IMG/VR virus record: IMGVR_UViG_3300045988_183785
Location: 305 to 64,304 of that record
DNA from: a virus
Reading direction: 5' to 3' (one strand)
DNA: 64,000 nt
Below the pieces are notes generated by a model. The model had not been told where the DNA came from, searched no databases, and saw nothing but the letters and a program-made list of their open reading frames with translations. A program made the translations under genes and the position numbers. Within the stretch, counting starts at the first letter, position 1, and every line of letters starts with the position of its first letter. This document shows positions 9,001 to 63,321 of the stretch, one piece after another.

Positions 9001-10341
9001 GCTCACCGTGATATCAACGACGAAAACCAGTCTGTCGAGATTAAGAATCCCGTCATTGTTGAAACCATCGCAACAAACAAAGTCGATGGGGGAAAGCTGG
9101 TTGACCCCACAGAGAAGGTCGTTTTGACTGATTCTGTAAAATACGACCATCTCTCCACTGCTCACAAGTATACACTTGTTGGTAAGCTGATGGATAAATC
9201 TACTGGAGAATCCTTGAAGGATAAGGACGGCAACTCTGTTGTTGCATCCACATTCTTTACTCCTGACAACCTCTTCGGTTCTGTTGAAGTCTTGTTTGAG
9301 TTCGATGGGAGTTCGCTCGCTGGCAAGGATATTGTTGTATTTGAGTATCTCTATTACAACGAGGGAGATGAAACGGCTTTGGCAACTCACGAGGACTTGG
9401 AAGACACCGCACAGACCGTTTCCTTTGCGAATCCTGCTATCAAGACCTCTGCTGCCAATGCTTCTACGGGGAAGAAGACGTTCTCTCCGTATGAGAAAGC
9501 CGAGCTGGTAGACACTGTGACCTATGAGGGACTTATCCCCGGTCACGAGTACACCTTGGTCGGGACTCTGGTAGAAAAGGTTAAATCTGGTGGGAATTGG
9601 GTCGAAGGTAAACCCGTCATGGACAAGGACAAAAAGCCCTTGACCGCTACTGCGACCTTTACGCCTGAAAAGGCCGAAGGAACAACGACGGTTTCTTTTG
9701 TGTTTGGTGCTCGTTCCGTTGCGGGGAAAACTCTCGTTGTGTACGAGGAGCTCCTCTACAACAACATGAGTGTCACTACTCACGCTGACATAACGGACGA
9801 GAACCAAACGGTTACAGTTGACCGCATCCATTATAGCGGGCCTACTATGGGAACTACGGCGACATTTGCCAATGGCTCAAAGTCCAGCGGTTACGCCTCT
9901 CGCCTTGTGGTCGTAGATACCGTGAGTTATTCTGGGTTGGCTGTTGGTCAGAATTACACCTTGGTTGGCAGGTTGATGGATGCTCAGACGGGGGAGGCTC
10001 TGCGCGATGCGGGCGGCAGGGAAGTAACCTCCAAGCTGACATTTACCCCGAAGGCCTCCGATGGCTCCATCGACATGAAATTCTCCTTCGCTGCGTCGAA
10101 CATCAAGGGTGCGAAGATTGTCGTGTTTGAGGAGGTGTATGTCGGAGGAAGTGTGGACGGGACTCCGTACCTGAGCCATACTGACATCAATGATGCTGGA
10201 CAGACTGTGACTGTTACCGCGTCTCCCAAGACTGGAGACGATGGCGTCGGCAAATATGTCTCTTTGGGCTCGATTGCCTTGGGAACTGCAATTATTGTCG
10301 TTGTAGTGAGCAACGTCAAGAGAAGAAAGAAAAATAAGTAA
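7..10341 (+). CDS. Giant cell-wall-anchored surface adhesin, 5'-truncated by the window edge. It has Cna-B-like repeats followed by about 18 Thr-Gln ester-bond-type stalk repeats and a C-terminal SPKTG sorting signal.
   Basis: Single 3444-aa ORF with no stop until 10341. There are about 13 repeats of ~95 aa with the motif KTSEDGxV...FxLxGT...TDANGxATFxNV (Cna B / prealbumin-like). These are followed by about 18 repeats of ~120 aa, each with a conserved VVFEELY...HxDxxDxxQTV motif. That motif is the His/Asp/Gln signature of autocatalytic Thr-Gln ester-bond domains (Cpe0147-type). The C-terminus reads SPKTGDDG, then a hydrophobic stretch, then a KRRKKNK tail, which is a sortase sorting signal. 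The N-terminal 95 aa align to aa ~345-440 of the downstream paralog, so the signal peptide and thioester domain lie upstream of the window. Confidence 0.85.
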   Translation: MREFGRIKFSLSGISTSKSGNNLTITATPEAAKSMLNGIESLPCKGNVIDPDSVNAYLLVAGGSKQNCVALNGWPDPVTCYVRAKVTQTTGNLNITKTSENGKNISNVSFTVTGPNGYNRLFKTNASGKISITDLQPGTYTITETSPLGYYAVNRVQTATVTIGGTASVSFQNKVSRCTVQVTKTSEDGVLQGFTFTLKGTSYAGDTVNLSATTDANGKATFSNVPLGSNYVLTEANTPGRYVAPVSQTFTLSTPNTSVSKTFENKLARGNVTVTKTSEDGKVSGVQFNLKGTSLSGQTVNLTETTNASGVATFSNVLVGTYTLTEVNTGRQYAPVSAQNVTVQYNSTARATVSNKLARGSVQVTKSSEDGKVANVKFRLQGTSIDGTAVDLYAATNASGVATFSNVLIGSYTVSEVNVPAYYQAVNPVNVTVTINRKVSVSVQNRLKVGAVQVTKTSEDGVVSNLSFTLTGTSDAGTTVSMTAKTDAQGVANFSNVPIGTRYTVQESSTPTRYVVPGVQAGITVRVNDTTKLSFHNDLARGSLRVTKTSEDGFVSGVKFHLEGTSTSGAAVSLDATTNAVGIAEFKNVLVGNSYVLTEVDTAARYVVPAVQNGITITVGKTTEASVYNKLARGTVTVTKTAEDGLVSGIKFRLTGTAGNGDTVDMTATTNAKGVATFSDVLIGENYFVQEVGTAEKYIVPDVVSGINVTLNKTTNANVHNKLARGTVSVTKTSEDGIVEGIKFHLTGASAQGQRVDMMAVTNASGIATFDNVLVGYNYALEEVDTAARYVIPAVKGGINVKLDKTTTVSVHNVLKKWSVTVTKRDIETTTAQGNATLQGAVYGLYNGDELVKQYTTDVNGKFTTDIYICGDSWTIREIVPSVGYLLDDSVYQVGAEAKNYVIEINAAPDLGVTEKVIKGYIKIFKHSDVGPTGVEESLPTGKVTPEVGAEFDVYLKAAGSYAAAKTTDRDHIVVDEDGYATTKALPYGTYVIEQTKHFEHADMLSGFEVTISENGKTYFYVLNDRPYYASVRVVKQDAMDNVQIPYSGAEFQIYDPDGTLVSLKAGTQKIDTFRTDNDGNLITPEELPFGRGYKLVETKAPRGYRLNSTPVTFNVDFESTTMEDGNKVVVVKMTDAPVTPQIKTVAKGAAGEKTLEPLTSVTIKDTVSCTDVIPGKTYTVNGYLVLKSTGEPLLDGAGRKITATNTFVGSNDFKGSTVLSFTFDASLIAGDAVVVYDTLHRDGVEVATHKNISDADQTVSFFAPEIKTSAVNPDGNVKVVDPSIGVSIVDTVSYKHLTPGHKYILNGQMMDRDTQQPAKDDNGTYIVGTTTFTPATTEGSVDVTFTFDATEIAGVQLVAFEKLYHVAISSDIPVATHEDIEDAEQTVTVEAPEITTHATNAEDGTKFLDPQYMVKVRDSVAYEKVVEGHTYLLTGKVFDKTTGEFVKDASGNEITGTTRFTPTAKAGTVDVEFVFDASELYGHMLVVFEKLSYRGVVLTVHEDEADAEQTVNVYSPKIGTTAIDGEGTGKFIDPAKNAVIKDTIAYEHLTIGQEYTIIGTVMNKRTGEAVVSGGRTVTVTNTFTPSASKGSTEMVFTFDASGLDGDSLVVYEELYFRASDSTPCAIHKDIGDEGQTVVVNTPAIHTTINESISLNNYFEPLNEITITDTVTYTDLVPGHRYKVKGNLVSKDTGDVIRDGNGNLVSGEADFVPTTKDGNIDVKFTLNASILYGQSVIAFESLYYHNTVIAEHKDLADEKQEAVFFAPALSTKALNNDGNTNLIDPAKGTHIVDTVYYRHLTPDHEYTVVGKLMDKMTGLPLLDAKGDEITGKTVFTPQRVAGAVNVEFTFDASNMAGKTLVVFEYLYFNEGDETPAGTHTDISDLKQSLTFNTPAIKTSAKNAEDNSKFFDPKSAVRLVDTVSYEGLCKGHEYTVNGVLMDKKTGTPVLNTDGNPVTGTTSFTARSAAGKVKVEFVFDASQLYGKSLVVFEELVFNGTVIAEHRDLDDRSQTVTINVPSISTRAVNTDGKGKMLDAAKETSITDTVSYSHVTPGHEYTLVGRLMNGGTGEEIPGTATRVKFTPKRTSGDVDMTFALDASLLAGKNVVVFEELFFNETDAAPCATHKDLRDEAQTVTVMEPSIGTTMKASPDKNQFFVSSLSTVLVDTVTYHNLIPGHTYVAEGRLMDKATGRVLVGGNGEISGRTVFVPKSMDGSVDVYFTFDSSELFGKTVVAFETVSYGGHIIAKHEDINDVDQSATFYNPELTNTTAVNGEGGSKYIDAARNVVIKDTVKYAHLPIKHDFKLRGTLVFQSSGEPVLLYNKPIVVEKSFTAKKAEGSIDMEFVFDASGLQGKKIVVFEELFYENQTIAAAAHKDLGDVGQTVTVSNPKVKTVASNKVDGSKMLEPDKRVTILDTVSFSGLIEGHTYKVSGTLMDKATGNPVVDESGETITAEKTFKAKAAGGSVDVEFTFAATELYGKDIVVFEKIFCNDTEIASHENINDREQTVTVYAPNITGTTAVGTLGGGKLIDPAANVKITDTVTYEHLSAGHKYTLRGTLMNKETGEAIKNGGTEVVVEQTFTPVEASGSVDMQFVFTASFLKGKDIVVFEEIYFNSEDTEPVAVHRDIDDGKQTVSVTSPEVRTVAVNKEDNGKVFEPDQTVTLKDTVFYNNLIVGHRYTVTGTLMDKGTGKPIKDTAGSIVASSVEFTPDAPCGTVDVEFPFAATELYGKTIVAFEKLLFNGTVIASHEDINDEEQTTTVHNPEIVRTVALSAVDGGKFIDASETSTINDTVVYRHLSTGHAYTLRSSLVDKTTGEPVLNNGKPVVSEMQFTPESTAGSAVAAIAFDASAAKGRDIVVFEELFFTAGDEAPVAAHKDIEDADQTVTVVKSSIKTCAENAADGTKVFEPASEVILKDTVDYEGIIAGHTYKVVGTLMDKSTGKPVEAAAGKSITAEKVFTPEGENGSVVVEFKFDARDFFGRTLVVFEDLYYGETVVAAHRDINDENQSVEIKNPVIVETIATNKVDGGKLVDPTEKVVLTDSVKYDHLSTAHKYTLVGKLMDKSTGESLKDKDGNSVVASTFFTPDNLFGSVEVLFEFDGSSLAGKDIVVFEYLYYNEGDETALATHEDLEDTAQTVSFANPAIKTSAANASTGKKTFSPYEKAELVDTVTYEGLIPGHEYTLVGTLVEKVKSGGNWVEGKPVMDKDKKPLTATATFTPEKAEGTTTVSFVFGARSVAGKTLVVYEELLYNNMSVTTHADITDENQTVTVDRIHYSGPTMGTTATFANGSKSSGYASRLVVVDTVSYSGLAVGQNYTLVGRLMDAQTGEALRDAGGREVTSKLTFTPKASDGSIDMKFSFAASNIKGAKIVVFEEVYVGGSVDGTPYLSHTDINDAGQTVTVTASPKTGDDGVGKYVSLGSIALGTAIIVVVVSNVKRRKKNK

Positions 10342-10669: not shown

Positions 10670-11860
10670 ATGAAAAAGATGAAGAATTTTATCGCCCTGC
10701 TGCTGGCTCTGGTGATGACCATGAGTTTGATGGCCTGCGGCAACAAGACTGACGAGGAGACCAAGACCGGAGAGGATATCGGCTGTTACGTGCAGACCAC
10801 CGAGTCCGGTGAGAAGGTTCTGGTGGATAAGGACGGCAACGCCGTGACCGACTACACGCTGGACGACGAAGGCAATGTGGTGGACACGCAGGGCGTGGTG
10901 GTCGTCAAGGCGGCGGACATCACGGCTTACGAGAAGTCCGAGGAAAAGGATGCGGAGAACAAGACCGACGCATCCGAGGCAAATACTCAGAAGCCTGAGG
11001 ATACTGCGAAGCCCGATGGCGAGAACAAGTCCGACGCACAGAAGACGGACACCAAGGTAGATAACACCAAGAAGGACGAGACCAAGAAGGACGACGCCAA
11101 GCAGGAGACTCAGAAGCCTGCTGACGCCAAGCAGGACACCACGAAACCTGAGACCAAGCCCGAAACAAAGCCTGAGGTTAAGCCGGAGCCCCAGAAGCCC
11201 GCAGCACCCAGCTACGATAACGGTTCTCTGACCACCGCACAGGTGAAGGAACTCCAGCGCTGGTACGGCGTAAGCGCGGACGGTCAGTGGGGTGCAGGCT
11301 CCAAGAAGGCCGCCGGTGGCCGCACCGCTGATGAGGCGTGGGCATACTACCAGAGCAACAAGCAGATTACCACCCCCGAAAACCCCTCTGGCGGCAACAC
11401 TGGTAACACTGGCAACACTGGGAACACTGGAAATACCGGCAGCACAGGTAACTCTGGCGCTGGTAACACTGGAAACACCGGCTCTACCGGTTCCACGGGT
11501 GGCGGTTCCACGGCTCCCACTACGCCTTCTGAGCCCGCCAAACCCACCAAGGCGACCATTGATTGCGAACAGGCTATGAGAGTGGGTAACGCATATGCAG
11601 AAAGCCTTGGTTTTATGATTTGGGACGGAGCCACCGGGTATAATCCCCCCGTTTTCCTTGAGCGCGATTGTCCTGAGTCCTGCTGGAATCAGGAGTGGGT
11701 TGAGGCGACAATTAAGAGAAATATTGATTTCCTTGTAAGCCAGTTGGAAAAAGCTACGGGTGAGAAGCCTTCTGATGCACCTTATGGGTCTTATGCCGCT
11801 AACTGTGTCGTTCGGTGGAATGCCTCTGCCGGTTATCACGAAATTTATATCTACTATTAA
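10670..11860 (+). CDS. Lipoprotein with a K/E/T-rich low-complexity linker, a (GNT)n repeat and a putative peptidoglycan-binding-like segment
   Basis: Lipobox signal peptide MKKMKNFIALLLALVMTMSLMACG with an RBS (GAAAGGA) upstream. The ORF call began at 10649, but the ATG at 10670 fits the signal peptide better. There is a GNTGNTGNTGNTGSTGNSGAGNTGNTGSTGSTGGG repeat. The segment VKELQRWYGVSADGQWGAGSKKAA resembles PG_binding_1. Confidence 0.6.
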   Translation: MKKMKNFIALLLALVMTMSLMACGNKTDEETKTGEDIGCYVQTTESGEKVLVDKDGNAVTDYTLDDEGNVVDTQGVVVVKAADITAYEKSEEKDAENKTDASEANTQKPEDTAKPDGENKSDAQKTDTKVDNTKKDETKKDDAKQETQKPADAKQDTTKPETKPETKPEVKPEPQKPAAPSYDNGSLTTAQVKELQRWYGVSADGQWGAGSKKAAGGRTADEAWAYYQSNKQITTPENPSGGNTGNTGNTGNTGNTGSTGNSGAGNTGNTGSTGSTGGGSTAPTTPSEPAKPTKATIDCEQAMRVGNAYAESLGFMIWDGATGYNPPVFLERDCPESCWNQEWVEATIKRNIDFLVSQLEKATGEKPSDAPYGSYAANCVVRWNASAGYHEIYIYY

Positions 11861-11940: not shown

Positions 11941-12222
11941 CTTTATACATAAGAGGAGAAGATTAAGATGGAAGCGAAATAAGTAAGAGATGAACCCAAA
12001 AAGTCAAAAGGGTGTCAGCAGGGGTTGATACCCTTTTCTTTTCTTCTTGAAATTTGTAGGTGCGGATGTGTTGACAATATGCGCGATTATGCTACCATAA
12101 AAACATGGAGGGCAATCCGCCTCCTTATATCATTCGTTTCAAATTGGCAATATTAAGAAATGAATAAATATAAGAGGGCTGATTTTCTCTAAATAATTCT
12201 TCATTGAAAGGAGACAAATACC

Positions 12223-15200
12223 ATGAAGCACAAGAAGGTACGTGGCGTTGTTGCTATGTTGCTGACGCTGGTGATGATGGTCGGAATGCTCCCGACATCC
12301 GTGTATGCGTCGGACGCGGATGGCGGCGGCAATTCGGTCGTCATCAAAAGTGTTTCTGACCCTGTGATGGTTGGAAAGACTGGTTCTGGCGACGGCGATT
12401 TGGTCTACAACGCCACAGAAGACACGAAGAATCCCGATGACAGCAAGAAGTCCGATTCTACCGTTGTTGAGGATGAGGTTAAGGGAGATGCCGATAAGAA
12501 GGACACCTCCAAAGAGAGCTCCTCTGAAAACGGGCAGGCTGCTCCGGGTGAAGCTAAATCTGAGACTGGTAAAGATGAGTCTGTCAAATCTTCCGTGACG
12601 GAGGAGGGACTTCAGGACCCCTACGCCGGAGAGAATACTCCTGTGAACGTTTCCATCCTTTACGGGTCTGCACAGAACGCCCCCAGAGCTATCAGTGCAA
12701 TGAGGGCTCCCGCTCGCGCATCGGGCACCATTACGACCGGTGACGACATGAGCTATAACAGCAAGTGGATGGCTGAGTTCGCACCCTATTCCAGTGCCGT
12801 TGTAAAATATTTCAACGGCCAGCCGGCGTACTGTATTGAACCCCACAAGGGTGCCCCCGGCGCGGGAACTTCCGTTGATGCCAGCGCGTATTGGGGAGAC
12901 CAGCGGGTTCGCCTCGCGCTTGCCTATGGCTACGGTGGGGCAGATGACTCAACGTTGCTCTGGTATGCTGGCAACGGCACCTATGCTTGGTGCGCCACAC
13001 AGGAAGTTATCTGGGAAATCGTCGGCGGCTACAGTGACCTGAGTGACCTGTTTGTGGGTCCCGGTCATGCTTATGACCCTGAAGTTGCTGTGCCCATCAA
13101 GGCGGCACACGATTATATCTGGGAGAAGATTAACCAGCAATCTATTATTCCAAGTTTTGCAGTATATACCCCTTTTGATAGCAGAAAGGATATTGAGCTT
13201 TCTTGGGACGGTTCTTCTTGGACAGCTACAAAAACCGATACCAACAGGGTTTTGAGAAATTTCGACGACTTTGAGTTTGGCCTGTCCGGTGTGAGCACCT
13301 TCCAGAGTGGAAACAATCTGACGATTACAGCCACACCGGAAGCTGCGAAGAGTATGCTGAACGGCATTGCGTCGTATGCTTCTGAGGGCAATGTGATTGA
13401 CCCCGACAGCGTCAATGCTTACCTTCTCGTCGCGGGTGGCAGCAAGCAGGACTGCGTTGCGCTGAACGGTTGGCCTGACCCCGTTACTGCTTACGTTCGC
13501 GCCAAGGTCACAAAGACTACCGGCGATTTGAACATTGCCAAGACCTCCGAGGATGGCAAGGTAGGCGGCGTGAGTTTCACGGTCACGGGCCCCAACGGTT
13601 ACAGCAAGACTGTGACCACTGGTGCAAACGGTAAGATTGCCATTACCGATTTGCAGCCCGGTACTTATACCGTAACGGAGAATACACCCGGCAATTACAT
13701 CCCGACGCAGCCCCAGTCCGTAAACATCGCAATCGGCGATTTTAAGACGGTGAACTTCAGCAACGTGCTGAAGAAGGGCGTTGTGAAGGTTACTAAGACC
13801 TCTGAGGATGGTCAGATTGCTGGTCACACCTTCCGTCTGTCCGGCACTTCCGCAGCAGGTACGGCTGTCAATATGACGGCTGTTACGGATGCCAACGGCG
13901 TGGCTACCTTCAATAATGTTCCTGTGGGCAACAACTATAAGCTGGAGGAAATCAACACCGCAGCGAAGTATGTTGTTCCTGCGGTGCAGGCTGGCGTGGT
14001 GGTTGAGTACAACACCAGCACCCCCGCTCAGTTTGAGAACAAGCTGGCTCGCGGCAATCTGAAAATCACGAAGACCTCCGAGGATGGCTTCGTGGCAGGC
14101 ATGACCTTCCGGCTGACCGGTACGTCTATCTCCGGTGCAGCAGTCAATGAAACTGCTTCTACCGACGAGAACGGTGTCGTCATGTTCAGAGAAATCCTTA
14201 TCGGTAATAACTATACCGTACAGGAAATCAACACCGCCGAGCGGTACGTTGTTCCCGCTGTCCAGAACAATGTGACCGTCACGCTCAACAATACCACCAG
14301 CTTGAACTTCCATAATAAGCTGGCTCGCGGCGCCGTTGAGGTTAAGAAGACCTCCGAGGACGGCAAGGTCGCTGGTATCACGTTCCGTCTGTCCGGTACT
14401 GCTATCAACGGCGAGACGGTGGATATGACCGCCGTGACCAATGACGCCGGAGTTGCCACCTTCAACAACGTTCTGATTGGCAACAACTACAGCGTTGAGG
14501 AAGTGAACACGGCTGCCAAGTATATCGTTCCCGCTGTGACAAACGGCGTGAAGGTTACTCTGGATAACACCACCCCCGTGAATGTCTACAACAAGCTCAA
14601 GCGCGGCGACCTGCGCGTTACCAAGACCTCTGAGGACGGCATGGTCGAGGGCATCACCTTCCGGCTGCATGGAACTGCCATCTCCGGCGATGCTGTTGAC
14701 CTGACTGCTACCACCAACGCTGACGGTATTGCCATCTTCAAGGATGTCCTGATTGGCAACAACTACACGCTGGAGGAAGTCGATACGGCGGTGAAGTATG
14801 TTATTCCTGCCGTGCAGACAGGTCTCGTTGTGGAGTTCCAGAAAGTTACCGACACCGCTGTGACCAACGTACTGAAGAAGTGGAAGGTCACTGTGGAGAA
14901 GACGGACGCCGAGACTGGCAACATCCCTCGCGGCGATGGTGTCTTTGAGGGTGCTGTGTACGGTCTCTATAAGGGTGACGAGCTGGTGAAGGAGTACGTT
15001 ATCGGCAGCGACGGTAAGTTTACCACTGACGAGTACATCTGCGGCTATGATTACACCATCCGTGAAATCAAGGCGCCCACTGGCTATCAGATTGATGAGG
15101 GCGTGTATCGCGTTGGCGCCGAGCCGGAGAACTACCGTATCGAACACAACGTTGCTCCCCAGATTACCTCTGTCGAGGTCATCAATCGCGGCACATTCGC

Positions 15201-17889
15201 CATCACCAAGTTCATCTCCGACGGGACCTCCGGTCCCGCTAAGTTCGAGGGCGGTGCAGAGTTCAAGTATTGGCTGCAGTCCGCCGGCTCTTACGAGAAC
15301 GCTAAGGATGACGAGCGCGGTATCCTGACGACCAACGACTTGGGCTACAGCGGCAAGTCCATCGAGCTGCCCTACGGCACCTATGTGGTGCATCAGACCA
15401 AGGCCGGCGATAAGGGGGCGGGGCTCGCGCCTGAGTTCACCGTTCTGGTCGGCGAGGTTGACCACGACCATCACGACTTGGCTGTCAACAACGGACCTAT
15501 TACCGCGTACCTGCGCGTTGTGAAGGTCGATGAGCTTGACGGCGAGGTCATTCCTTGGGGCGGCGCGAAGTTCCAGATTTACGACCCTGACGGGAACAAG
15601 GTGTCCCAGAAGGTCACTTACCCCACGGTAACTTATATTGATACATTCGAGACCAATGATGAGGGTTATTTTGTGACCCCGCTGGTTCTGCCTTACGGCG
15701 AGAACTATCATCTGGTCGAAATCGTACCCCCGAAGGGTTATGAGCTGATGGATACCCCGATTACCTTCAGCGTTACGCCCGATACCATTTCTCTGGATGC
15801 CGAGACCGGTCTGGTGACTGTGAATATCATCGCCGAGGACGAGGCGGTGACTCCCAAGGTCAAGACTACTGCAACCGACAAGGAAGGCAACAAGGAAATC
15901 GTTCCGTCCACCACCGTCACTATCGTCGATAAGGTGGAATGCACCGACGTTATCCCCAACAAGACCTATACGGTCGAGGGATATCTGGTGGTTAAGTCCA
16001 CCGGCGAGCCTCTGCTGGACGCCGAGGGTAATCGCATTACCGCCTCTAAGACCTTCAAGGCTGAAGCCGACTTCACTGGCTTTGTGGAGCTGGAGTTCAC
16101 CTTTGATGCGTCTCTGCTGGGTGGCGAGTCCATCGTTGTTTTCGAGGACCTGAAGCGCGGAAACCGTGTCGTTGCTACCCATGCTGACATCAACGATGTT
16201 GACCAGACCGTTGTAATCCTGAACCCCAAGATTGGCACCACGGCCAAGAACGCTGTTGGCGGCAAGGAGTTCATGCCTCTGGCTGATGTGATTCTGGTGG
16301 ATACCATCTCCTACGAGAATATGCCCGTGGGTAAGGAGTTCATCGCTATCGGTACGCTGATGGATAAGGCCACCGGCAAGCCCGTTACCGATGCCAACGG
16401 CGACCCCGTTACCTCTTACAAGGTGTTCACTCCCGAAGCTGCCACTGGTACGGTGGATGTGAAGTTCGTCTTTGACGCTTCCAAGCTGGCCGGCAAGTCT
16501 CTGGTGGTATTCGAGCGTGTGTATCTGGGCAACGAGATTGTTCCCGGCGACTCCAATAAACCCGTGTTTGTGAGTCACGAGGATATCAACGATGAGGGGC
16601 AGACCGTCACCATCGGCGTTCCCGAAATCGGTACAAAGGCCGTGAACAACGCCACCAATGGCAAGACCCTCGACCCCGAAGCCCGCGCTGAAATCAAGGA
16701 TACCGTGTCCTATAAGGGCCTGATTGCTGGAGAGAAGTACACTGTCTCCGGTAAGCTGATGAACAAGGCCACCAACGAGCCCCTGAAGGATAAGGACGGA
16801 AAGGAAATCACCTCCTCCGTTACCTTCACCGCTGAGGCGTCCAATGGCACCGTTGACGTGTTCTTCGTGCTCGATGCATCTCTGCTGCGTGGTCAGTCTA
16901 TCGTTGTATTCGAGTCCCTACAGTACAAGGACATTGAAATCGCAGTTCATGCCGACATCAACGATGTTGACCAGACTGTGACTGTCAATAGCCCTGAAAT
17001 CAAGACCACCGCTAAGAACGCTGCTGATGGCAAGAAGGAATTCTGGGCCTACAGCAAGGTCGAGCTGGTCGATACCGTGTCCTATAAGGGCCTGATTGCC
17101 GGCAATAAGTACACCGTAATCGGTAAGCTGATGGACAAGGCGACAGGTGAGCCTGTTCTGGGCCGCAACAACAAGGAAATCACCGCCACTACCGAGTTCG
17201 AGGCCAAATCCTCTGACGGCACTGTGGATGTGAGCTTCGTGTTTGATGCATCCATTCTGGGCGGTAAGACGCTGGTCGTGTTCGAGACCCTGACCCGCAA
17301 TGGCACTACGGTAGCGACTCACGCCGACATCAACGATGTTGACCAGACTGTGACCATCAAGCGCATCCCGACCTATTCCGGTCCGAGCATTTCCACCACC
17401 GCTACCTTCGATGGCAAGGAGAAGAAGAACTCCGTTGCTGGTAAGAACGTGAAAATCGTGGACACCGTCAACTATACCGGCCTGACTGTGGGCAAGACCT
17501 ACGTGCTGGTTGGTACGCTGATGGATAAGGATTCCGGTGTTGCCCTCAAGGACAATAAGGGGAATCTGGTAACGGCTACCACGACCTTTACGCCCAAGTC
17601 CTCCAACGGGGCTGTGAATGTTACGTTCAAGTTCGACGCATCCAAGCTGAAGGACCATGCGCTCGTGGTGTTCGAGACTCTGTATGAGGGTCGTGCTGAG
17701 GCGGGTAATGTCATTGCTACCCACAACGACCTGATGGACGGTGCCCAGACGGTGTATTTCCGCGACAGTGTCCAGACTGGCGATGAGGGCATCGGCCTGT
17801 GGGCCATGCTGGGTACGTTCAGTACCATTGCTTGCTGCGGCACTGCGGTGTTCATGTTCCGCCGCAAGAAGGAGTATGGCGCCGAGTAA
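12223..17889 (+). CDS. Thioester-domain (TQXA-type) surface adhesin with Cna-B-like repeats, 5 Thr-Gln ester-bond-type stalk repeats and a C-terminal sorting signal. It is a paralog of the upstream adhesin.
   Basis: RBS AAGGAGA, then a signal peptide MKHKKVRGVVAMLLTLVMMVGMLPTSVYASD. The N-terminal domain has Cys in YCIEPHKG and Gln in WCATQEVIWE, which is the Cys-Gln pair and TQxA-like motif of TED adhesins. There are about 8 KTSEDG Cna-B-like repeats, then VaFE/ester repeats with HADINDVDQTV motifs. The C-terminus reads SVQTGDEG, then a hydrophobic TM stretch, then FRRKKEYGAE. Confidence 0.85.
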   Translation: MKHKKVRGVVAMLLTLVMMVGMLPTSVYASDADGGGNSVVIKSVSDPVMVGKTGSGDGDLVYNATEDTKNPDDSKKSDSTVVEDEVKGDADKKDTSKESSSENGQAAPGEAKSETGKDESVKSSVTEEGLQDPYAGENTPVNVSILYGSAQNAPRAISAMRAPARASGTITTGDDMSYNSKWMAEFAPYSSAVVKYFNGQPAYCIEPHKGAPGAGTSVDASAYWGDQRVRLALAYGYGGADDSTLLWYAGNGTYAWCATQEVIWEIVGGYSDLSDLFVGPGHAYDPEVAVPIKAAHDYIWEKINQQSIIPSFAVYTPFDSRKDIELSWDGSSWTATKTDTNRVLRNFDDFEFGLSGVSTFQSGNNLTITATPEAAKSMLNGIASYASEGNVIDPDSVNAYLLVAGGSKQDCVALNGWPDPVTAYVRAKVTKTTGDLNIAKTSEDGKVGGVSFTVTGPNGYSKTVTTGANGKIAITDLQPGTYTVTENTPGNYIPTQPQSVNIAIGDFKTVNFSNVLKKGVVKVTKTSEDGQIAGHTFRLSGTSAAGTAVNMTAVTDANGVATFNNVPVGNNYKLEEINTAAKYVVPAVQAGVVVEYNTSTPAQFENKLARGNLKITKTSEDGFVAGMTFRLTGTSISGAAVNETASTDENGVVMFREILIGNNYTVQEINTAERYVVPAVQNNVTVTLNNTTSLNFHNKLARGAVEVKKTSEDGKVAGITFRLSGTAINGETVDMTAVTNDAGVATFNNVLIGNNYSVEEVNTAAKYIVPAVTNGVKVTLDNTTPVNVYNKLKRGDLRVTKTSEDGMVEGITFRLHGTAISGDAVDLTATTNADGIAIFKDVLIGNNYTLEEVDTAVKYVIPAVQTGLVVEFQKVTDTAVTNVLKKWKVTVEKTDAETGNIPRGDGVFEGAVYGLYKGDELVKEYVIGSDGKFTTDEYICGYDYTIREIKAPTGYQIDEGVYRVGAEPENYRIEHNVAPQITSVEVINRGTFAITKFISDGTSGPAKFEGGAEFKYWLQSAGSYENAKDDERGILTTNDLGYSGKSIELPYGTYVVHQTKAGDKGAGLAPEFTVLVGEVDHDHHDLAVNNGPITAYLRVVKVDELDGEVIPWGGAKFQIYDPDGNKVSQKVTYPTVTYIDTFETNDEGYFVTPLVLPYGENYHLVEIVPPKGYELMDTPITFSVTPDTISLDAETGLVTVNIIAEDEAVTPKVKTTATDKEGNKEIVPSTTVTIVDKVECTDVIPNKTYTVEGYLVVKSTGEPLLDAEGNRITASKTFKAEADFTGFVELEFTFDASLLGGESIVVFEDLKRGNRVVATHADINDVDQTVVILNPKIGTTAKNAVGGKEFMPLADVILVDTISYENMPVGKEFIAIGTLMDKATGKPVTDANGDPVTSYKVFTPEAATGTVDVKFVFDASKLAGKSLVVFERVYLGNEIVPGDSNKPVFVSHEDINDEGQTVTIGVPEIGTKAVNNATNGKTLDPEARAEIKDTVSYKGLIAGEKYTVSGKLMNKATNEPLKDKDGKEITSSVTFTAEASNGTVDVFFVLDASLLRGQSIVVFESLQYKDIEIAVHADINDVDQTVTVNSPEIKTTAKNAADGKKEFWAYSKVELVDTVSYKGLIAGNKYTVIGKLMDKATGEPVLGRNNKEITATTEFEAKSSDGTVDVSFVFDASILGGKTLVVFETLTRNGTTVATHADINDVDQTVTIKRIPTYSGPSISTTATFDGKEKKNSVAGKNVKIVDTVNYTGLTVGKTYVLVGTLMDKDSGVALKDNKGNLVTATTTFTPKSSNGAVNVTFKFDASKLKDHALVVFETLYEGRAEAGNVIATHNDLMDGAQTVYFRDSVQTGDEGIGLWAMLGTFSTIACCGTAVFMFRRKKEYGAE

Positions 17890-32780: not shown

Positions 32781-32868
32781 GGAGAGATGGCCGAGCGGTT
32801 GAAGACACCGGTCTTGAAAACCGGCGATGCGAAAGCATCCGTGGGTTCGAATCCCACTCTCTCCGCCA
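32781..32868 (+). tRNA. tRNA-Ser (anticodon TGA)
   Basis: Cloverleaf with acceptor GGAGAGA/TCTCTCC, anticodon loop CTTGAAA, long variable arm, T-loop GGTTCGAATCC and 3' CCA. Length 88 nt. Confidence 0.9.
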
Positions 32869-32882
32869 AAAGTAAAAAATAA

Positions 32883-33400
32883 GTACGGACGGTATAACCG
32901 GAATTAACGCCTGTGGAGATGCATGGTCATCGTGGAAGCAGGAATACTCTGTTAGCTGGTCATTCATGTGAGAGATGATGTCAGCACTTTTAGGGAACTG
33001 AATATGCCTGTGTCGGGTGTATGAAACCCTGAAAAAGCAGTGGTGTATACCATCAACGCAGTCCCATTAGAGTGCCGGAGAGGTATATAAAGCCCCGAAA
33101 TAGCAGGGTTGTATACCATGTTGACTACGGGAATCACAGTATACAGGGCCTTAAAACAATAGGGTTATATACCACTCACGCATTCCTGTTGCTTGTGAGC
33201 ACAAGATGCCAAATTTTGAAAAAGTGTGCAATGATTGCATACTTAAAAAGTACGGATGGTATAACCGGAATTAACGCCTGTGGAGACGGACTCCGTCGCT
33301 AAAGCAGGAACTTGCCATGAGCTGAATTCTGCGTGAGAGGCGGTGCAACGCCGAGGTGGGAGTACCTTGGGGGAACATTAGCAAGCGCACAAAAATCAAA
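32883..33400 (+). mobile_element. IS200/IS605-family right-end / omega-RNA-scaffold-like remnants (two diverged copies plus a 3-unit mini-repeat), directly 3' of tRNA-Ser. No tnpA or tnpB is present.
   Basis: 32883-32972 is about 92% identical to 63059-63150, the sequence downstream of the tnpB-like gene. A second diverged copy at about 33215-33400 includes the palindrome GTGTGCAATGATTGCATAC found right after the tnpB-like stop (63018-63036). Three short repeats resembling CCCyGAAAwAGCAGGGTTGTATACCA lie at about 32990, 33040 and 33140. Confidence 0.55.
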
Positions 33401-42999: not shown

Positions 43000-43200
43000 A
43001 TATATAGAAAAAGACAATCACTGCCCGAAAAGGGAAGTGATTGTCTGAATTTATGATGTGACTTGAAAAACGGAGATAAAACTCCTTATAAAAATATCTT
43101 CGTAATTATACTATTATACTACCACGTTTCGCTATTTTGTCAACAGCAGCAACGTAAAAAAAGAAGCTCCCGAAGGAGCTTCTTTTGAAATTTAGTTTTT
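43000..43200 (-). promoter_or_regulatory. Repeat module R1: terminator of the upstream operon, then promoter (TTGACA-N19-TATAAT-AG-TATAAT), conserved leader and a terminator-like attenuator hairpin
   Basis: Sequence shared with 48935-49125, 52925-53112 and 55965-56160. Read on the minus strand it is TTGACAaaatagcgaaacgtggtagTATAATagTATAATtacgaagatatttttataAGGAGttttatCTCC...AGACAATCACT-loop-AGTGATTGTCT-TTTTTCTATATA. Confidence 0.6.
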
Positions 43201-48934: not shown

Positions 48935-49125
48935 TCTGAATATATAAAAAGACAGTCGTTCCCAAATGAGAACAACTGTCTTGAATATGATGATGTGACT
49001 GAAAACGGAGATAAATCTCCTTATAAAAATATCTTCGTAATTATACTACTATACTACCACAATTCTTTATAATGTCAACGGAAACGGTACAAAAAAAGAA
49101 GCCCCCGAAAGAGCTTCTTTTTAAG
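48935..49125 (-). promoter_or_regulatory. Repeat module R2 (terminator, promoter, leader and attenuator hairpin)
   Basis: Read on the minus strand: TTGACAttataaagaattgtggtagTATAGTagTATAATtacgaagatatttttataAGGAGAtttATCTCCgttttcagtcacatcatcatattcAAGACAGTTGTTC-loop-GAACGACTGTCTTTTTATATAT. Confidence 0.6.
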
Positions 49126-52924: not shown

Positions 52925-53112
52925 GTGAATATATAAAAAGACAGTCGTTCTCAAAAGAGAACAACTGTCTTGAATGTGATGATGTGACTGAAAACGGAGA
53001 CAAAGCTCCTTATAAAAATATCTTCGTAATTATACTACTATACTACCACATTTCCTTATAATGTCAACGGTTTCGACGCAAAAGAAAAGAGCCGCACAGC
53101 GGCTCTTTTTTT
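52925..53112 (-). promoter_or_regulatory. Repeat module R3 (terminator, promoter, leader and attenuator hairpin)
   Basis: Same architecture as R2. The leader hairpin is AAGACAGTTGTTCTC-tttt-GAGAACGACTGTCTT followed by TTTTATATAT. Confidence 0.6.
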
Positions 53113-54100: not shown

Positions 54101-54370
54101 TTACATCTCGCCATCCTCGGCAGCGGTTATAATACCGAATCTGAGGTTGTTGTTGATGTCGTAGATACTTAATCCGCTATCAAAGTCCTTGCGGAGCTGC
54201 GTCGCAGCGGCCTCTACGGAGTCTTCGCCGTACTCAAACGTCTCGGACTCGACGCAGGTTGCCACAAGCTCCTTCAGCTTTGCGCGGGAAGTCGTCGCAG
54301 AAACCAGACGCATAGAGTCTGTTGCTTTCCAAGCGTCACAGGCAAACACGATGAAGATAGGATTACTCAT
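54101..54370 (-). CDS. Hypothetical small protein (89 aa) immediately downstream of the MazF-like gene
   Basis: ATG at MSNPIFIVF. It overlaps the stop of the MazF-like gene by 8 nt. Confidence 0.4.
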   Translation of the reverse strand: MSNPIFIVFACDAWKATDSMRLVSATTSRAKLKELVATCVESETFEYGEDSVEAAATQLRKDFDSGLSIYDINNNLRFGIITAAEDGEM

Positions 54371-54941
54371 TTTCGGCTTGCTCCTTTCTTCTTCCAACGG
54401 TGGCTGCGGGGTACGGTGTGGCCCGCTTGTTGTTGCTGTCCATGATTCGCATAACATGGACAAGCATCTCGGAATATGCCCTGTGCATGGTTTCATACCG
54501 CGCACGCCATGTATTATCATCATTGTCGTTCACGCGAGCACTCAGCCCCATGCTGTAGTACAGCGCGGCGTCGATGTCTACCAGCTCCGCTTCAGTCAGG
54601 TGGCAGATATAGGCTCCCAGCTCATTGACAGAAACTGCCATCGGCTGCTCGCACAGTGCTGTGCTGGGGCGGCTCGTGCTCGTGATGAGTACATGGGAGG
54701 GCTGCTGCATCTTTGGAGATGATGTCGTAAATACGACCTCCACTACACTGCTGTAGCGGTTCAGGTCATCCGAAGATACAACGATTGCGGGACGATGCCC
54801 TCTGATAACAGAGCTATTGGAAGGATGTCCGTCTTTATCGCGGAACTGGCTTCCTTCCGGGGCCCAAGGGGAAAAGATTTCGATTTCTTTCGCATTGACC
54901 CAAAAAACATCGCCCCTGCGGATGTTTCCATTTCTACCCAT
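54363..54941 (-). CDS. MazF/PemK-family toxin-like protein with a C-terminal extension of about 70 aa
   Basis: RGDVFWVNAKE...GHRPAIVVSSDDLNRYSSVVEVVFTTSS matches the PemK/MazF signature (RGDIY.VDF...RPAVVIS...N.....V.VVP.TS). Total length 192 aa, against about 110 aa for canonical members. Confidence 0.6.
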   Translation of the reverse strand: MGRNGNIRRGDVFWVNAKEIEIFSPWAPEGSQFRDKDGHPSNSSVIRGHRPAIVVSSDDLNRYSSVVEVVFTTSSPKMQQPSHVLITSTSRPSTALCEQPMAVSVNELGAYICHLTEAELVDIDAALYYSMGLSARVNDNDDNTWRARYETMHRAYSEMLVHVMRIMDSNNKRATPYPAATVGRRKEQAENE

Positions 54942-55149
54942 AGATTCTTGTCTCCTTTCCTTCAGAATTGGTTACACACGACGGAATGCCGAAAAAAGAC
55001 AGAACCGCTTTAAGCGGCTCTGTCTCCATGCAGTCGATATGACACTGTTTGTTTTCGTAGGGTGCCTCGACAAATTCTTCGCCAACCTCAATGGGTTCGT
55101 GGCAAATGCAGCATTCGCCGGCGTAACGAATTTTCTTTTTTGCTTTCAC
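54934..55149 (-). CDS. Small zinc-ribbon protein (71 aa), a candidate cognate antitoxin
   Basis: Contains CCICHEPI...CHIDC. Its stop overlaps the start of the MazF-like gene by 8 nt. Confidence 0.4.
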   Translation of the reverse strand: MKAKKKIRYAGECCICHEPIEVGEEFVEAPYENKQCHIDCMETEPLKAVLSFFGIPSCVTNSEGKETRIYG

Positions 55150-55964: not shown

Positions 55965-56160
55965 AAAAATATATAAAAAGACAGCTATCCCTGTCTTGGG
56001 ATAACTGTCTTGAATACTTGGTGTGACTGGAAGCGGAGATAAGTCTCCTTATAAAAATATCTTCGTAATTATACTATTATACTACCACAATTATTTATAA
56101 TGTCAACAATGGCAGAGAAAAAAGAGGCGGCTTTCGCCTGCCTCTTTTTTTACCTTATTT
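55965..56160 (-). promoter_or_regulatory. Repeat module R4 (terminator, promoter, leader and attenuator hairpin)
   Basis: Read on the minus strand: TTGACAttataaataattgtggtagTATAATagTATAATtacgaagatatttttataAGGAGActtATCTCC...AAGACAGTTATCCC-aagaca-GGGATAGCTGTCTT followed by a T run. Confidence 0.6.
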
Positions 56161-60709: not shown

Positions 60710-61198
60710 TGGACAGGGCAAGAAAGGCTCGTTCGAAGGGCTCGTGCCTAAAATGACAATATTCTTGCGATTGTAAGAATAAGCGCCTAAATTGCCCGTC
60801 CCGTTTTCTTCTTTCTTTAATTACACTCATAAGCACAATAAAGTCAGCTCCCTGAGGGAAGTGTGCGGGAGCTGCTTCGACTTTCGCGTTGTTCTCCATG
60901 CGGGGAGGTTCTGGCGGTTCGAGTCCGCACGACGCGCCTTCTGTTTTCGCTGCTGTTATCTTTGCCTCTGTCTTTTCCAACGAGCAGCGGACACGGAAAC
61001 ATCTCTCAATATGATAGCGTAGCATAACTGGTAATGCCGTACCTCTCTCACAGGTAACGATATGTTGGTTCAACTCCAGCCGCTATTGCCAGCCGGCGTT
61101 CTACCCACCCCGCCGACATCAACTCTCTTCGGCGCTGGCGGCCTCCGTGCAGACGTGATTAACCTGCGATAAGCGGAGGCTGCCAGCACCACCAAAAT
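60710..61198 (+). ncRNA. Candidate structured non-coding transcript or leader upstream of the tRNA cluster (no convincing ORF; contains tRNA-like T-loop motifs)
   Basis: About 490 nt lie between a strong promoter and tRNA-Thr with only short, low-quality ORFs. GGTTCGAGTCC (60918) and GGTTCAACTCC (61067) are T-loop-like. A tRNA-like acceptor pairing CGCGTTG/CGACGCG flanks the first. Confidence 0.25.
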
Positions 61199-61274
61199 GC
61201 TGGTGTAGCTCAGTAGGCAGAGCGGCGCACTCGTAACGCGCAGGTCGTGGGTTCGACCCCCACCGTCAGCTCCA
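61199..61274 (+). tRNA. tRNA-Thr (anticodon CGT)
   Basis: Acceptor GCTGGTG/CGTCAGC (two G-U pairs), anticodon loop CTCGTAA, T-loop GGTTCGACCCC, 3' TCCA. Length 76 nt. Confidence 0.8.
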
Positions 61275-61367
61275 TTCCATACTCATTCTCCTTCAAGTGA
61301 AGCCCCCGTGTAACAGGTCTTTTGAAAAGTGCTTTCAGCCTCGTTGTGCGGGGGCTTCACAACTTAT

Positions 61368-61443
61368 GCTGATGTAGCTCAGTTGGCAGAGCGGCGGATT
61401 TGTAAACCGCAGGTCGGGGGTTCAAGGCCCTCCATCAGCTCCA
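61368..61443 (+). tRNA. tRNA-Thr (anticodon TGT)
   Basis: Acceptor GCTGATG/CATCAGC, anticodon loop TTTGTAA, T-loop GGTTCAAGGCC, 3' TCCA. Length 76 nt. Confidence 0.8.
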
Positions 61444-61478
61444 TTAAAACCATGTGCTTTTGTGGTGTTTTTATATGC

Positions 61479-61555
61479 GCGGATGTCGTCTAATTTGGTG
61501 AGACACCAGCCTTCCAAGCTGGTCATTGCGGGTTCGAGTCCCGTCGTCCGCTCCA
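61479..61555 (+). tRNA. tRNA-Gly (anticodon TCC)
   Basis: Acceptor GCGGATG/CGTCCGC, anticodon stem-loop CCAGC-CTTCCAA-GCTGG, T-loop GGTTCGAGTCC, 3' TCCA. Length 77 nt. Confidence 0.8.
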
Positions 61556-61943: not shown

Positions 61944-63002
61944 ATGCCAACTACATTTCAAGCGTTTAAGTATCGCATTTACCCGACTGATGAGCAGGTC
62001 GAAATCATTGAAAAGACTTTCAAGTGCTGCCGGTTTGTGTGGAACCATTTCCTTGAGCGAACCTCCAAAATCTATGACCGTCGGCAGGAAAAGATGACGA
62101 CCTTCGACTGTATGAAGGTTCTCACGGAGATGCGGGAGCGCTGGCCTTGGCTTGCGGACTGCGGCTGTACGGCAGAGAGATATGCCATCATTGATTTGTT
62201 TGAGGCGCGAAAGGCGTTCTTCCGCCGCATTAAAGCGGGGGAGAAGCCCGGTTATCCCAAATTTAAGGGCGCGTCCCATCCGACACAGAGTTTTACGACC
62301 GCTGGTACTATCTATGTGACGGACGATTACATTCAGGTTCCGTTTGGAGGACAGTATCAGAAAATCAACAAGCTCAGGCGAGGGACGGGGCGCCCCATCG
62401 AAGGGTCTCCCCGCGAGGTCACTATTTCTCGGTCTGCTACCGGAAAATACTGGGCATCTGTCTGCTGTAAAGTAGAGCGAGACACGCTGCCTATTGTGGA
62501 CGGCGAGGTGGGAATCAGTCTCGGCCTGAAGGAGTTGGCTATTGACAGCAACGGCGTTCACTATGAGAACCCGAAGCATCTGAGCAAGTCTGCAAAGCGG
62601 TTGGCACGTGAGCAGCGGCGTCTATCCCGCAAGAAGAAGGGCTCTGTCAACTACGAGAAGCAGCGGCGCAAGGTAGCCGGCGTCCATGAGCATATTGCCA
62701 ATCAGCGCAATGACTACCGGCATAAAATCAGCCGTGAACTTGTCAACGCGAACCAGCTTATTGCTGTTGAGAAGGTGGCCGTTAAGCCCTTAGTTGAGGG
62801 CAATGAGCAGGCTAAAAGCATCCTCGATGCCGGCTGGTCTGAACTTACCGGTATGATAAAGTATAAGGCGGACTGGGCTGGACGCACTCTGGTGGACGTA
62901 GATACCGCCACCGTAGCACCGGAAGCCAAGCATGATGAGGCACTGGCACAGGTCGTGCTGTCCGAAGGTCAGCGCATGGCTTCCGAGCAGAAGCCTGCCT
63001 AA
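61944..63002 (+). CDS. tnpB: TnpB homolog (IS200/IS605 OrfB family) with a substituted RuvC-I Asp and a C-terminal truncation that removes the zinc finger and RuvC-III. It is either a TldR-like nuclease-dead RNA-guided protein or a decaying tnpB.
   Basis: The N-terminus MPTTFQAFKYRIYPTDEQ is typical of TnpB. The RuvC-I motif reads VGISLGLKELAIDSNG where GIDLG is expected, so the catalytic D is replaced by S. The RuvC-II Glu is retained in LIAVEKVAV. The protein ends at ...EYKADWAGRTLVDVD plus a short tail. Canonical TnpB continues from here with a CxxC...CxxC zinc finger and the RuvC-III Asp. No alternative frame restores these. Length 352 aa against about 400 for active TnpB. Confidence 0.7.
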   Translation: MPTTFQAFKYRIYPTDEQVEIIEKTFKCCRFVWNHFLERTSKIYDRRQEKMTTFDCMKVLTEMRERWPWLADCGCTAERYAIIDLFEARKAFFRRIKAGEKPGYPKFKGASHPTQSFTTAGTIYVTDDYIQVPFGGQYQKINKLRRGTGRPIEGSPREVTISRSATGKYWASVCCKVERDTLPIVDGEVGISLGLKELAIDSNGVHYENPKHLSKSAKRLAREQRRLSRKKKGSVNYEKQRRKVAGVHEHIANQRNDYRHKISRELVNANQLIAVEKVAVKPLVEGNEQAKSILDAGWSELTGMIKYKADWAGRTLVDVDTATVAPEAKHDEALAQVVLSEGQRMASEQKPA

Positions 63003-63222
63003 AGCCGAGCGAGGAAAGTGTGCAATGATTGCACACATTGCCAAGGAAATAAAAACGAGTACGGACGGTATAGCCGGAATTAACGCCTGTGGAGATGCAT
63101 GGTCGTCGTGGAAGCAGGAATACTCTGTTGGCTGGTAGTCACGTGAGAGGTGGCACCAGCGCTTTGGGGAACTGAATACCTGTGCTGGGTATACACCACC
63201 CGGAAATAACAGGGTTTTACCA
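63003..63222 (+). ncRNA. Omega-RNA (reRNA)-like scaffold downstream of the tnpB-like gene, at the IS605-type right end
   Basis: A perfect palindrome GTGTGCAATGATTGCACAC follows the stop. A ~90-nt block is ~92% identical to 32883-32972. Further hairpins follow (GGCACCAGCGC..., CCCGGAAATAACAGGG). The structure shows compensatory changes relative to the copy at 33215-33400. Confidence 0.5.
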
Positions 63223-63321
63223 TTCGTAATTATAGTTCTTCCCTCCGCTGTGTGGAGCGTTTTGTCGAAATGACAAAACATTCCTCTTAAATTCTTAAAA
63301 ACAAGAAAGGAAATAAAGAAT

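Follow-up and report, generated by a model that had tools for sequence, protein, structure and literature searches.

What could a TnpB-like protein do once its nuclease site has been taken apart, and which RNAs might guide it? These questions are raised by a gene close to the right-hand end of a 64,000-nucleotide (nt) stretch of DNA, hereafter the window, that corresponds to positions 305 to 64,304 of the IMG/VR virus record IMGVR_UViG_3300045988_183785. The gene, denoted tldR here (61944-63002, + strand), codes for a 352-amino-acid (aa) TnpB homologue and precedes an RNA-like region. An original prediction, made from the DNA letters alone, proposed that its product is TldR-like, i.e., a nuclease-dead TnpB homologue domesticated as an RNA-guided factor. 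The part of this proposal that concerns a domesticated dead form stood, on the grounds of selection, conserved length and neighbours, and fold, but the picture of one omega-RNA serving one promoter is too narrow in view of the arrays, the many loci and the island targets described below. Our overall reading, whose probability we put at about 60%, is that the locus encodes a TldR-like, multi-guide RNA-guided silencer directed against a rival or parasitic integrative island.

A shortened TnpB derivative under purifying selection

The TnpB-type N-terminus and WED/RuvC core recognised at the outset match the Pfam families HTH_OrfB_IS605 (E 1.6e-17) and OrfB_IS605 (E 3e-25), and the closest solved structure by sequence is that of ISDra2 TnpB (E 2e-49, residues 6-322). 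The AlphaFold model, built from 75 sequences, has a predicted local distance difference test score (pLDDT) of 87.6 and a predicted template modelling score (pTM) of 0.78. Its top fold relative in Foldseek is again ISDra2 TnpB (8exa; template modelling score, TM, 0.83/0.86). Domains and fold thus place the protein in the TnpB/IS605-family OrfB superfamily. What it lacks is the intact D-E-D RuvC triad and the zinc finger of active, transposon-borne TnpBs. In the alignment to solved structures, 'GVDVGIKDFAI' of ISDra2 pairs with 'GISLGLKELAI' of the window protein, and 'VGISLG' stands opposite 'GIDxG' of 70 full-length homologues and 'GVDVG' of ISDra2. Ser192 therefore occupies a nearly invariant Asp column, in alignments with 14 as well as with 74 homologues, which confirms the predicted loss of the RuvC-I Asp. 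The zinc finger (CxxC...CxxC) is indeed absent, through an in-frame deletion of ~28 aa, and the corresponding Pfam model, Cas12f1-like_TNB, covers profile positions 1-24 of 60 only, with a score below the cut-off.

Two other early claims, that the protein stops right after the YKAxW block and that the RuvC-III Asp is lost, had to be abandoned. A conserved 32-aa tail ('...KHDEALAQVVLSEGQRM...') follows, which aligns to 'DRDENAAKNILTEGLRM' of full-length TnpBs and falls in the RuvC-III region ('KHDEALAQVVLSEG' vs. 'DRDENAAKNILTEG' in full-length proteins). D331 stands in the RuvC-III Asp column, where we take the second Asp of the DRD motif to be the catalytic residue, as in the Cas12f and TnpB motifs. 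E276 of RuvC-II is also retained, and the NAAxN context of RuvC-III is gone. Altogether, the alignments and the fold support the view that the product of 61944-63002 is a domesticated, nuclease-dead, ISDra2-type TnpB derivative that resembles TldRs. Because both the RuvC-I Asp and the TNB/zinc-finger module are lost, DNA cleavage by this protein would be unlikely.

The shortened form is shared by relatives of the window. A search covering 5.8 billion proteins returned three clusters with the same truncated architecture (99%, 88% and 79% identity; 352, 352 and 348 aa), and the D192S replacement and the in-frame zinc-finger deletion are common to orthologues throughout this 79-99% range. The nearest full-length TnpBs are only ~50% identical to the window protein. 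In the contigs of two of the orthologue clusters, the neighbouring genes are the same as in the window. Scanning IMG/VR with the core of the RNA scaffold described below yielded 57 loci on ~25 large contigs (31-192 kb), in which every scaffold-adjacent TnpB-like open reading frame (ORF) carries VGISLG and the same tail, at approximately one such gene per contig. The syntenic truncated orthologues that the domestication hypothesis calls for thus exist in ~20 related elements, with the same length, the same changes at the same place and conserved neighbours. Among 19 distinct coding sequences, nearly all of the same length and in the same reading frame, the two deepest clades are separated by ~1.2 synonymous (dS) and 0.085 non-synonymous (dN) substitutions per site, giving a dN/dS ratio of 0.07. 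Strong purifying selection acts on the shortened, Ser-bearing form.

The gene does not behave as a mobile one either. There is a single copy per element, always after the same tRNA cluster, rather than several copies at variable sites with tnpA or insertion sequence (IS) ends, although no formal search for IS ends was made. In the window, this tRNA-Glu/Thr/Thr/Gly cluster (61013-61555, +) lies directly upstream of tldR, an arrangement kept in relatives; the window has no other TnpB-like ORF, and there is no tnpA nearby. No relative of the tldR locus was found in GenBank phages. As a separate observation, the search also revealed a second shortened TnpB clade (P0022 and P0026; 320 aa, 44-46% identical), whose RuvC-I Asp is gone ('VTIRRD') together with the whole C-terminal module, and which may represent another, independent domestication.

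Scaffold copies and repeat-spacer arrays

The structured, partly palindromic RNA region initially placed after the stop codon turned out to be two things. A conserved, RNA-like region is present as described, but the palindrome is a separate, perfect hairpin (GTGTGCAAT-G-ATTGCACAC; 63018-63036, +) between the stop codon and the omega-RNA-like scaffold proper (GTACGGACGGTATAGCCGGAATTAACGCCTGTGGAGA...GGGGAACTGAATACCTGTGCTG; 63059-63187, +), which is ~130 nt long, conserved and begins with GTACGG. Two further matches account for the three copies in the window that had been noticed: 63051-63223 matches 32875-33053 (83% identity) and 63015-63120 matches 33221-33310 (74%). Across the family, we counted 94 scaffold copies in 61 sequences. 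The DNA upstream of these copies (a tRNA end, terminator-like hairpins, a palindrome) is mutually unrelated, which defines the 5' edge of the conserved unit. No omega-RNA family of Rfam matches the scaffold at gathering or permissive thresholds, and covariation is sparse, with compensatory changes in seven of 36 pairs among copies that are too similar to prove a structure. An out-of-frame ORF (62932-63138, +1 relative to tldR) spans the scaffold and encodes the typical extreme C-terminus of full-length TnpBs; from its sequence, it appears to be a fossil of an ancestral reading frame that overlapped the omega-RNA.

Behind tldR, the scaffold is followed by a single, degenerate copy (GGTATACACCACCCGGAAATAACAGGGTTTTACC; 63188-63221, +) of a repeat that is far better represented elsewhere in the family. 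This 36-nt repeat (GGTATACACCACCCNGAAATAACAGGGTTGTATACC) is predicted to fold into a hairpin, at energies between about -6 and -20 kcal/mol, and we collected 233 instances of it in 86 variants. It alternates with spacers of 30-31 nt at a period of 66 nt, with at least one and up to ~6 repeat units per locus, and the final repeat is often degenerate, as it is in the window. A TnpB/Cas12-type effector followed by direct repeats with unique spacers is the layout of a type V-like CRISPR locus. A genome carries a single protein gene alongside up to eight or more scaffold-array loci, and the tldR gene is always accompanied by an array. The arrays turn over between relatives: spacers vary between elements with 99%-identical proteins, and some spacers are common to different loci. 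In one 99%-identical relative (L003), three repeats and two unique extra segments occupy the place of the single hairpin unit of the window, and another (L001) carries yet other segments at the position after the stop codon.

The second scaffold copy of the window (32883-33015, +) has no protein gene beside it and begins 15 nt past the 3' end of a tRNA-Ser(tga) gene (32781-32868, +). It leads into a mini-array (33016-33202, +) made of repeats at 33016-33051, 33082-33117 and 33138-33173 and spacers at 33052-33081, 33118-33137 and 33174-~33202. The junction between tRNA-Ser and scaffold is kept in at least nine related elements, which suggests that the two are co-transcribed and that tRNA processing might set the 5' end of the scaffold. 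As for the third copy (33250-33376, +), it is a divergent paralogue preceded by the same perfect hairpin (33224-33242), with the same 5' core and altered stems, and it ends in GGGGGAAC without the hairpin repeat. Pairing is preserved in its altered stems, to which a further GC hairpin is added, no guide is obvious, and paralogues of this type (in the window, L023 and L047) are always preceded by the tRNA-Ser array and by a GTGTGCAATGATTGCA palindrome. They may be remnants or trans-acting scaffolds.

The repeat was absent from 185,579 species-representative bacterial and archaeal genomes, which were scanned for exact matches. We found no cas1, cas2 or cas4 among ~40 proteins of the window and related loci, nor among the Pfam-annotated tldR neighbours in L001 and L003, although no systematic whole-genome search was made. 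In GenBank, an unannotated 14.7-kb 'Bacteriophage sp.' sequence from human faeces (MT835962.1) has two of the spacers 180 nt apart (1746-1927), i.e., an array, and the source of this sequence links the family to the human gut.

One full-length relative, P0011 (885 members), has its catalytic sites intact, and its omega-RNA shares the scaffold core but ends differently, without the hairpin repeat. One related element (L001) encodes a chimeric protein (P0003; 10001-11047) whose first ~175 residues are identical to P0011 and whose remainder is the dead form, which indicates that the two lineages recombine. The shared core and this recombination fit descent of tldR from an IS of the P0011 family. 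The omega-RNAs of the nearest full-length TnpBs (P0005 and P0006) gave no alignment to the scaffold and have no arrays. We also noted a chimeric scaffold in L014 (3283-3505), with a 5' half of the tldR type and a 3' half of the P0011 omega-RNA type ending in GGTTGAATATCC; it is preceded by a 184-aa ORF ending in ...KAEYPTWSFEIY.

Spacers converge on an operon of a small integrative island

What do the spacers match? A metagenome scan with the most widely shared spacer, using a query built to exclude arrays, returned a single contig (L164), and further contigs of the same kind were obtained by way of its Rep-like protein. Many spacers from many arrays map to one ~2.6-kb, promoter-proximal stretch of this DNA, which comprises a gene for a 107-aa protein, a gene for a 340-aa protein with an 'HIHMVL' motif, a GTGKS Walker A motif and a weak Pfam AAA match, and a gene for a 423-aa FtsK/SpoIIIE-family ATPase. 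We interpret the 340-aa protein as Rep- or relaxase-like on the basis of its motifs. After the targeted genes come those for a Tn916-type Xis and a tyrosine integrase, and the whole unit measures ~6.5-7 kb. In bacterial contigs, it adjoins ychF on one side, whereas the other side differs (cobalamin genes vs. suf genes), and a constant flank combined with a variable one points to a small integrative island. The Rep gene of the island was not found in IMG/VR.

By a stringent count, 13 spacer families map to the island. All 13 protospacers have a G at position -1 (binomial p 1.3e-8), and 12 of the 13 families read in the same sense as the coding strand (p 0.003). Another island variant adds three families with the same G flank and strand sense, bringing the total to at least 16, and the flanking chromosomal genes have no spacer match. 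The spacers thus match a foreign element beside a conserved 5' motif, as in type V-like targeting, and most of them lie inside the coding region of its operon and not at a host or self promoter. The geometry, in which the RNA carries the guide at its 3' end and the motif lies 5' of the protospacer, is that of TnpB and Cas12. The strand bias means that the guide would pair with the template strand and that the end next to the target-adjacent motif (TAM) would face the promoter.

Matches outside the island are few. A spacer from a sibling array (L005) matches the window at 12052-12081 (-) over its first 19 nt, with the G flank, and covers the -35 hexamer TTGACA (12071-12076) of the promoter of a giant adhesin gene discussed below; three other relatives have this site too. 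Apart from this spacer and the 12-nt matches of the terminal guide, no spacer matched 1.4 Mb of related elements. GenBank phages contained no protospacer, only the MT835962.1 array. Two spacers tried against IMG/VR, species-representative genomes and metagenomes gave nothing (for the conserved one, by exact scan of the species representatives), and the window spacer 33052-33081 is absent from JGI metagenomes. Promoter hexamers are weakly enriched within spacers (p 0.003 for a -10-like motif, not significant for TTGAC), and we did not use them as evidence.

The terminal guide and a promoter shared by the two elements

The terminal guide (ATTCGTAATTATAGTTCT; 63222-63239, +) abuts the degenerate repeat behind tldR and relates the carrier to its presumed target in a particular way. 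A promoter-like element of ~130 nt (TTGACA...TGGTAGTAT...TATAATTACGAAG) occurs four times in the window, on the minus strand, at 43024-43174, 48959-49109, 52948-53098 and 55987-56137. These four near-identical, intergenic copies read as strong promoters (TTGACA, an extended -10, then TATAATTACGAAG) on the strand opposite the guide match, and each contains an exact match to 12 nt of the guide (63223-63234), at 43099-43110, 49034-49045, 53023-53034 and 56062-56073, respectively. They also include a hairpin (GGAGATAAATCTCC), and all four point leftward into a minus-strand gene block. In the DNA of the family, we counted 123 copies of this element; the targeted island has one, which lies upstream of the targeted operon and points into it. 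The terminal guide matches this island copy (L164 3537-3553) over 16 of 18 bases with the G flank, as against 12 nt with a T or C flank at the copies of the carrier. This difference makes the island copy the likely target, and the 12-nt matches in the window would then reflect the kinship of the two promoters, although the guide may also bind at the element's own copies. Self-regulation of the four window promoters was our first idea, which we downgraded once the island copy proved to be the better, G-flanked match.

A proposed mechanism and its competitors

We propose that guide RNAs would be produced from the omega-RNA-derived scaffold, whose last hairpin would have been reiterated into repeat-spacer arrays. 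The array locus behind tldR is probably co-transcribed with the gene, another sits directly behind tRNA-Ser, and the others are scattered. It is tempting to speculate that placement behind tRNA genes supplies RNA processing, because the dead RuvC domain could not trim its own RNA. The ribonucleoprotein would bind double-stranded DNA complementary to the spacer and flanked by a 5' G, without cutting it. With the terminal guide, it would block the initiation of transcription at the island promoter, and with most spacers, it would block elongation within the Rep-like/FtsK-like operon, with its TAM end towards the promoter; replication or mobilisation of the rival or parasitic element would thereby be silenced. 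We favour RNA-guided occupancy because the strand bias matches the orientation in which TldRs repress, whereas cutting would need no bias. For TldRs, repression is by RNA-guided binding and, within the 5' untranslated region, occurs only when the TAM-proximal end faces the promoter (10.1101/2023.11.30.569447). The repeat-spacer units downstream of the first might use a scaffold in trans, provided by its many copies or by the repeat-less variant. For TranC, a split omega-RNA is described as able to serve arrays (Jin et al. 2025, as cited in PMC13565253).

Several observations weigh against this reading. It assumes that units beyond the first repeat are loaded onto the protein, a TAM of one base would be unusually short among TnpBs, ~80% of the 96 spacer families are unmatched, and none of the collections searched, 1.4 Mb of related elements and the islands included, contains a target of the three array spacers of the window. 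Capsid, terminase and conjugation genes, which could have told what kind of element the carrier is, were not seen among the ~40 proteins tested. Finally, E276 and D331 are kept, and residual nuclease activity may persist. Might the protein then still be a nuclease, with Ser192 supporting cleavage jointly with E276, D331 or an acidic residue at a new position, and the island be cut by a miniature type V CRISPR-like system? Of the three catalytic positions, two are indeed retained, but the RuvC-I Asp is essential in characterised TnpBs, the deleted TNB/zinc-finger module is the one that feeds the substrate to RuvC, and the NAAxN context of RuvC-III is lost. TnpBs and Cas12 proteins with rearranged yet active RuvC sites figure in the general account of PMC10691335. 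Since the strong coding-strand bias also fits a transcriptional roadblock better than cleavage, we regard a cutting enzyme as improbable.

A classical TldR with a single guide would be a simpler device, in which the adjacent guide regulates the promoter that the element itself carries many times over (four times in the window, more than 100 times in the family), for instance as a timing switch, the other scaffolds and arrays being inert duplicates. The 12-nt matches fall in the -10/start region of the four promoter-like elements, a match of this length is expected by chance in ~0.008 cases per spacer (as we estimate from the length of the window and 4^12), and guides of 9-16 nt are reported for some TldRs (10.1101/2023.11.30.569447). 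Against this, pairing at the own copies ends at 12 nt, and they are devoid of the G found at all 13 stringent protospacers, or 16 with the additional three, while the island copy has both the G and the longer match. Moreover, inert duplicates would neither vary in their arrays from one close relative to the next nor yield 16 spacer families with a strand bias on one foreign operon, and we find this explanation unlikely. Alternatively, the arrays could serve another effector of the element or of its host, such as a full-length relative, and the dead protein might be a regulator, a competitor or a decoy. Most arrays are distant from the tldR gene, and P0011, with its intact sites, shares the scaffold core and has recombined with tldR. 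Nevertheless, no intact TnpB adjoins any of the 94 scaffold copies, the P0011 omega-RNA is devoid of the repeat, the species-representative genomes are devoid of it as well, and the dead gene is under strong selection and always comes with an array; this division of labour thus seems to us a poor candidate. As for a decaying IS605-family element, i.e., a pseudogene with leftover right-end copies, it would account for the C-terminal deletion, the active-site substitution, the lack of tnpA nearby and the scattered right-end-like copies. It is refuted by the dN/dS ratio, and the uniform length and frame of the coding sequences, the conserved neighbours, the confident fold prediction and the structured arrays with non-random targets make it still harder to maintain; we give it next to no credence.

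On top of the silencer reading, a more far-reaching idea may be offered tentatively. The locus might be an independently born CRISPR-like system at an early stage, in which a nuclease-dead TnpB acts with copies of an omega-RNA gene whose hairpin repeat takes up ~30-nt spacers from G-flanked island sites without Cas1-Cas2. If true, this would imply a spacer-capture route of a new kind, and a single-base TAM would suffice to separate the island promoter from the 100-plus copies of the carrier.

Relation to known RNA-guided systems

The protein shares with the fliC- and oppF-associated TldR clades (Wiegand et al., 10.1101/2023.11.30.569447) its TnpB size, its ISDra2-like fold, a degraded RuvC site and the loss of the zinc finger, in its case through changes maintained by selection. 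The likeness extends to the lack of tnpA, a location that is fixed within a mobile element, a putative guide RNA of omega-RNA origin beside the gene, whose guide has a match in a promoter, and the target orientation expected of a roadblock. However, it belongs to a different clade, unrelated to the published TldRs, and no conserved non-transposon partner gene of the kind that accompanies TldR clades was identified. Published TldRs use a single guide RNA, unlike the repeat-spacer arrays, many loci and spacer turnover found here, and most targets of the present system are inside the operon of a foreign island instead of at a host promoter. In layout and targeting, the system more closely resembles a small, nuclease-dead type V CRISPR than those single-guide TldRs.

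TranC, a group of transposon-CRISPR intermediates (Jin et al. 2025, Cell; PDB 9jfo), is similar in that an effector of nearly TnpB size goes with repeat-spacer arrays that arose from the 3' end of the omega-RNA. By analogy, this likeness supports the idea that an ISDra2-type protein could use array-encoded guides. An engineered split of the ISDra2 omega-RNA reportedly allowed array use in the same way. TranCs are active nucleases, however, and LaTranC is only a distant relative of the window protein (E 1e-11 over 80 residues, Foldseek rank 5); in addition, the first repeat is fused to the scaffold in our case, and the scaffold itself is multiplied.

Cas12m (type V-M) and Cas12c, which bind DNA without cleaving it, are described in PMC11656645 as occurring on plasmids and prophages, with arrays that have no adaptation module and with competitors silenced by binding. 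The resemblance is one of strategy, as Cas12m has ~600 aa against 352, ranks 27th or lower in Foldseek (TM 0.67/0.49, ~10% identity; target-normalised TM 0.38-0.49) and did not appear in any sequence search. Cas12m also keeps its RuvC domain, with a catalytic site degraded in many variants, and uses ordinary CRISPR RNAs without a fused scaffold. Nor is the RuvC-dependent cleavage of type V CRISPR-Cas expected from our protein, judging from the replaced RuvC-I Asp and the missing TNB/zinc-finger module.

Conflicts of this type between mobile elements have precedents: the CRISPR system of phage ICP1 acts against PLE islands. Virus mini-arrays, in the account given by PMC11656645, likewise direct spacers of a mobile element at a related or parasitic one, but they borrow the Cas proteins and repeats of the host, whereas this element brings its own nuclease-dead effector and a repeat that is absent from the 185,579 genomes. 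In general terms, Altae-Tran et al. 2023 (PMC10691335) describe arrays born from serial duplication of omega-RNA segments, array-only type V systems without cas1/2/4, non-canonical RuvC-I sites and inactivated TnpB clades. The general description of these groups, among them small Cas12-U and 'omega-RNA array' types, on which our comparison is based, includes no target, TAM or carrier biology like that reported here.

The TldRs published so far have one fixed guide and the published intermediates between TnpB and CRISPR are nucleases; here, both features would be joined in a 352-aa dead effector with multi-guide arrays, whose natural targets are unusually clear. The family offers a concrete, testable case of guide arrays arising from an omega-RNA, and it makes one ask by what route spacers are gained when no known adaptation module takes part. 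Such RNA guidance might allow a mobile element to silence another with which it shares a promoter. In practical terms, the effector is a very small candidate for multiplexed CRISPR interference with a minimal targeting motif (G).

The carrier element

The relatives of the carrier are listed as viral in IMG/VR. The window encodes a surface adhesin with thioester, SpaA and T-Q domains, a bacterial topoisomerase III-type enzyme, a RecG-like helicase, a MazF-like toxin, a secreted non-specific nuclease and a flotillin-like protein, and relatives add a large serine recombinase, RecE-like and ExoV/Dda-like enzymes and an HNH protein. Carrier and target could be either a phage and its satellite or a conjugative element and a mobilisable island; both readings amount to a conflict between mobile elements. 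The two elements have a gene for a 314-aa protein in common (58-64% protein identity; 10979-11857 of the window vs. 2084-3046 of L164), whose product (~314 aa) appears to be secreted and has a weak peptidoglycan-binding match.

Giant ORFs occupy 7-10341 and 12223-17889 of the window. The latter encodes an 1888-aa protein with a signal peptide, a thioester domain, a SpaA domain and five T-Q ester-bond domains, which by its domain content is a Gram-positive covalent adhesin; it is the promoter of this gene that the sibling spacer targets. Lastly, a small ORF with CxxC motifs (54934-55149, -) lies upstream of the gene for the PemK/MazF-like toxin (54363-54941, -) and overlaps it. This ORF possibly encodes the antitoxin, and the pair is kept in L001 and L003.

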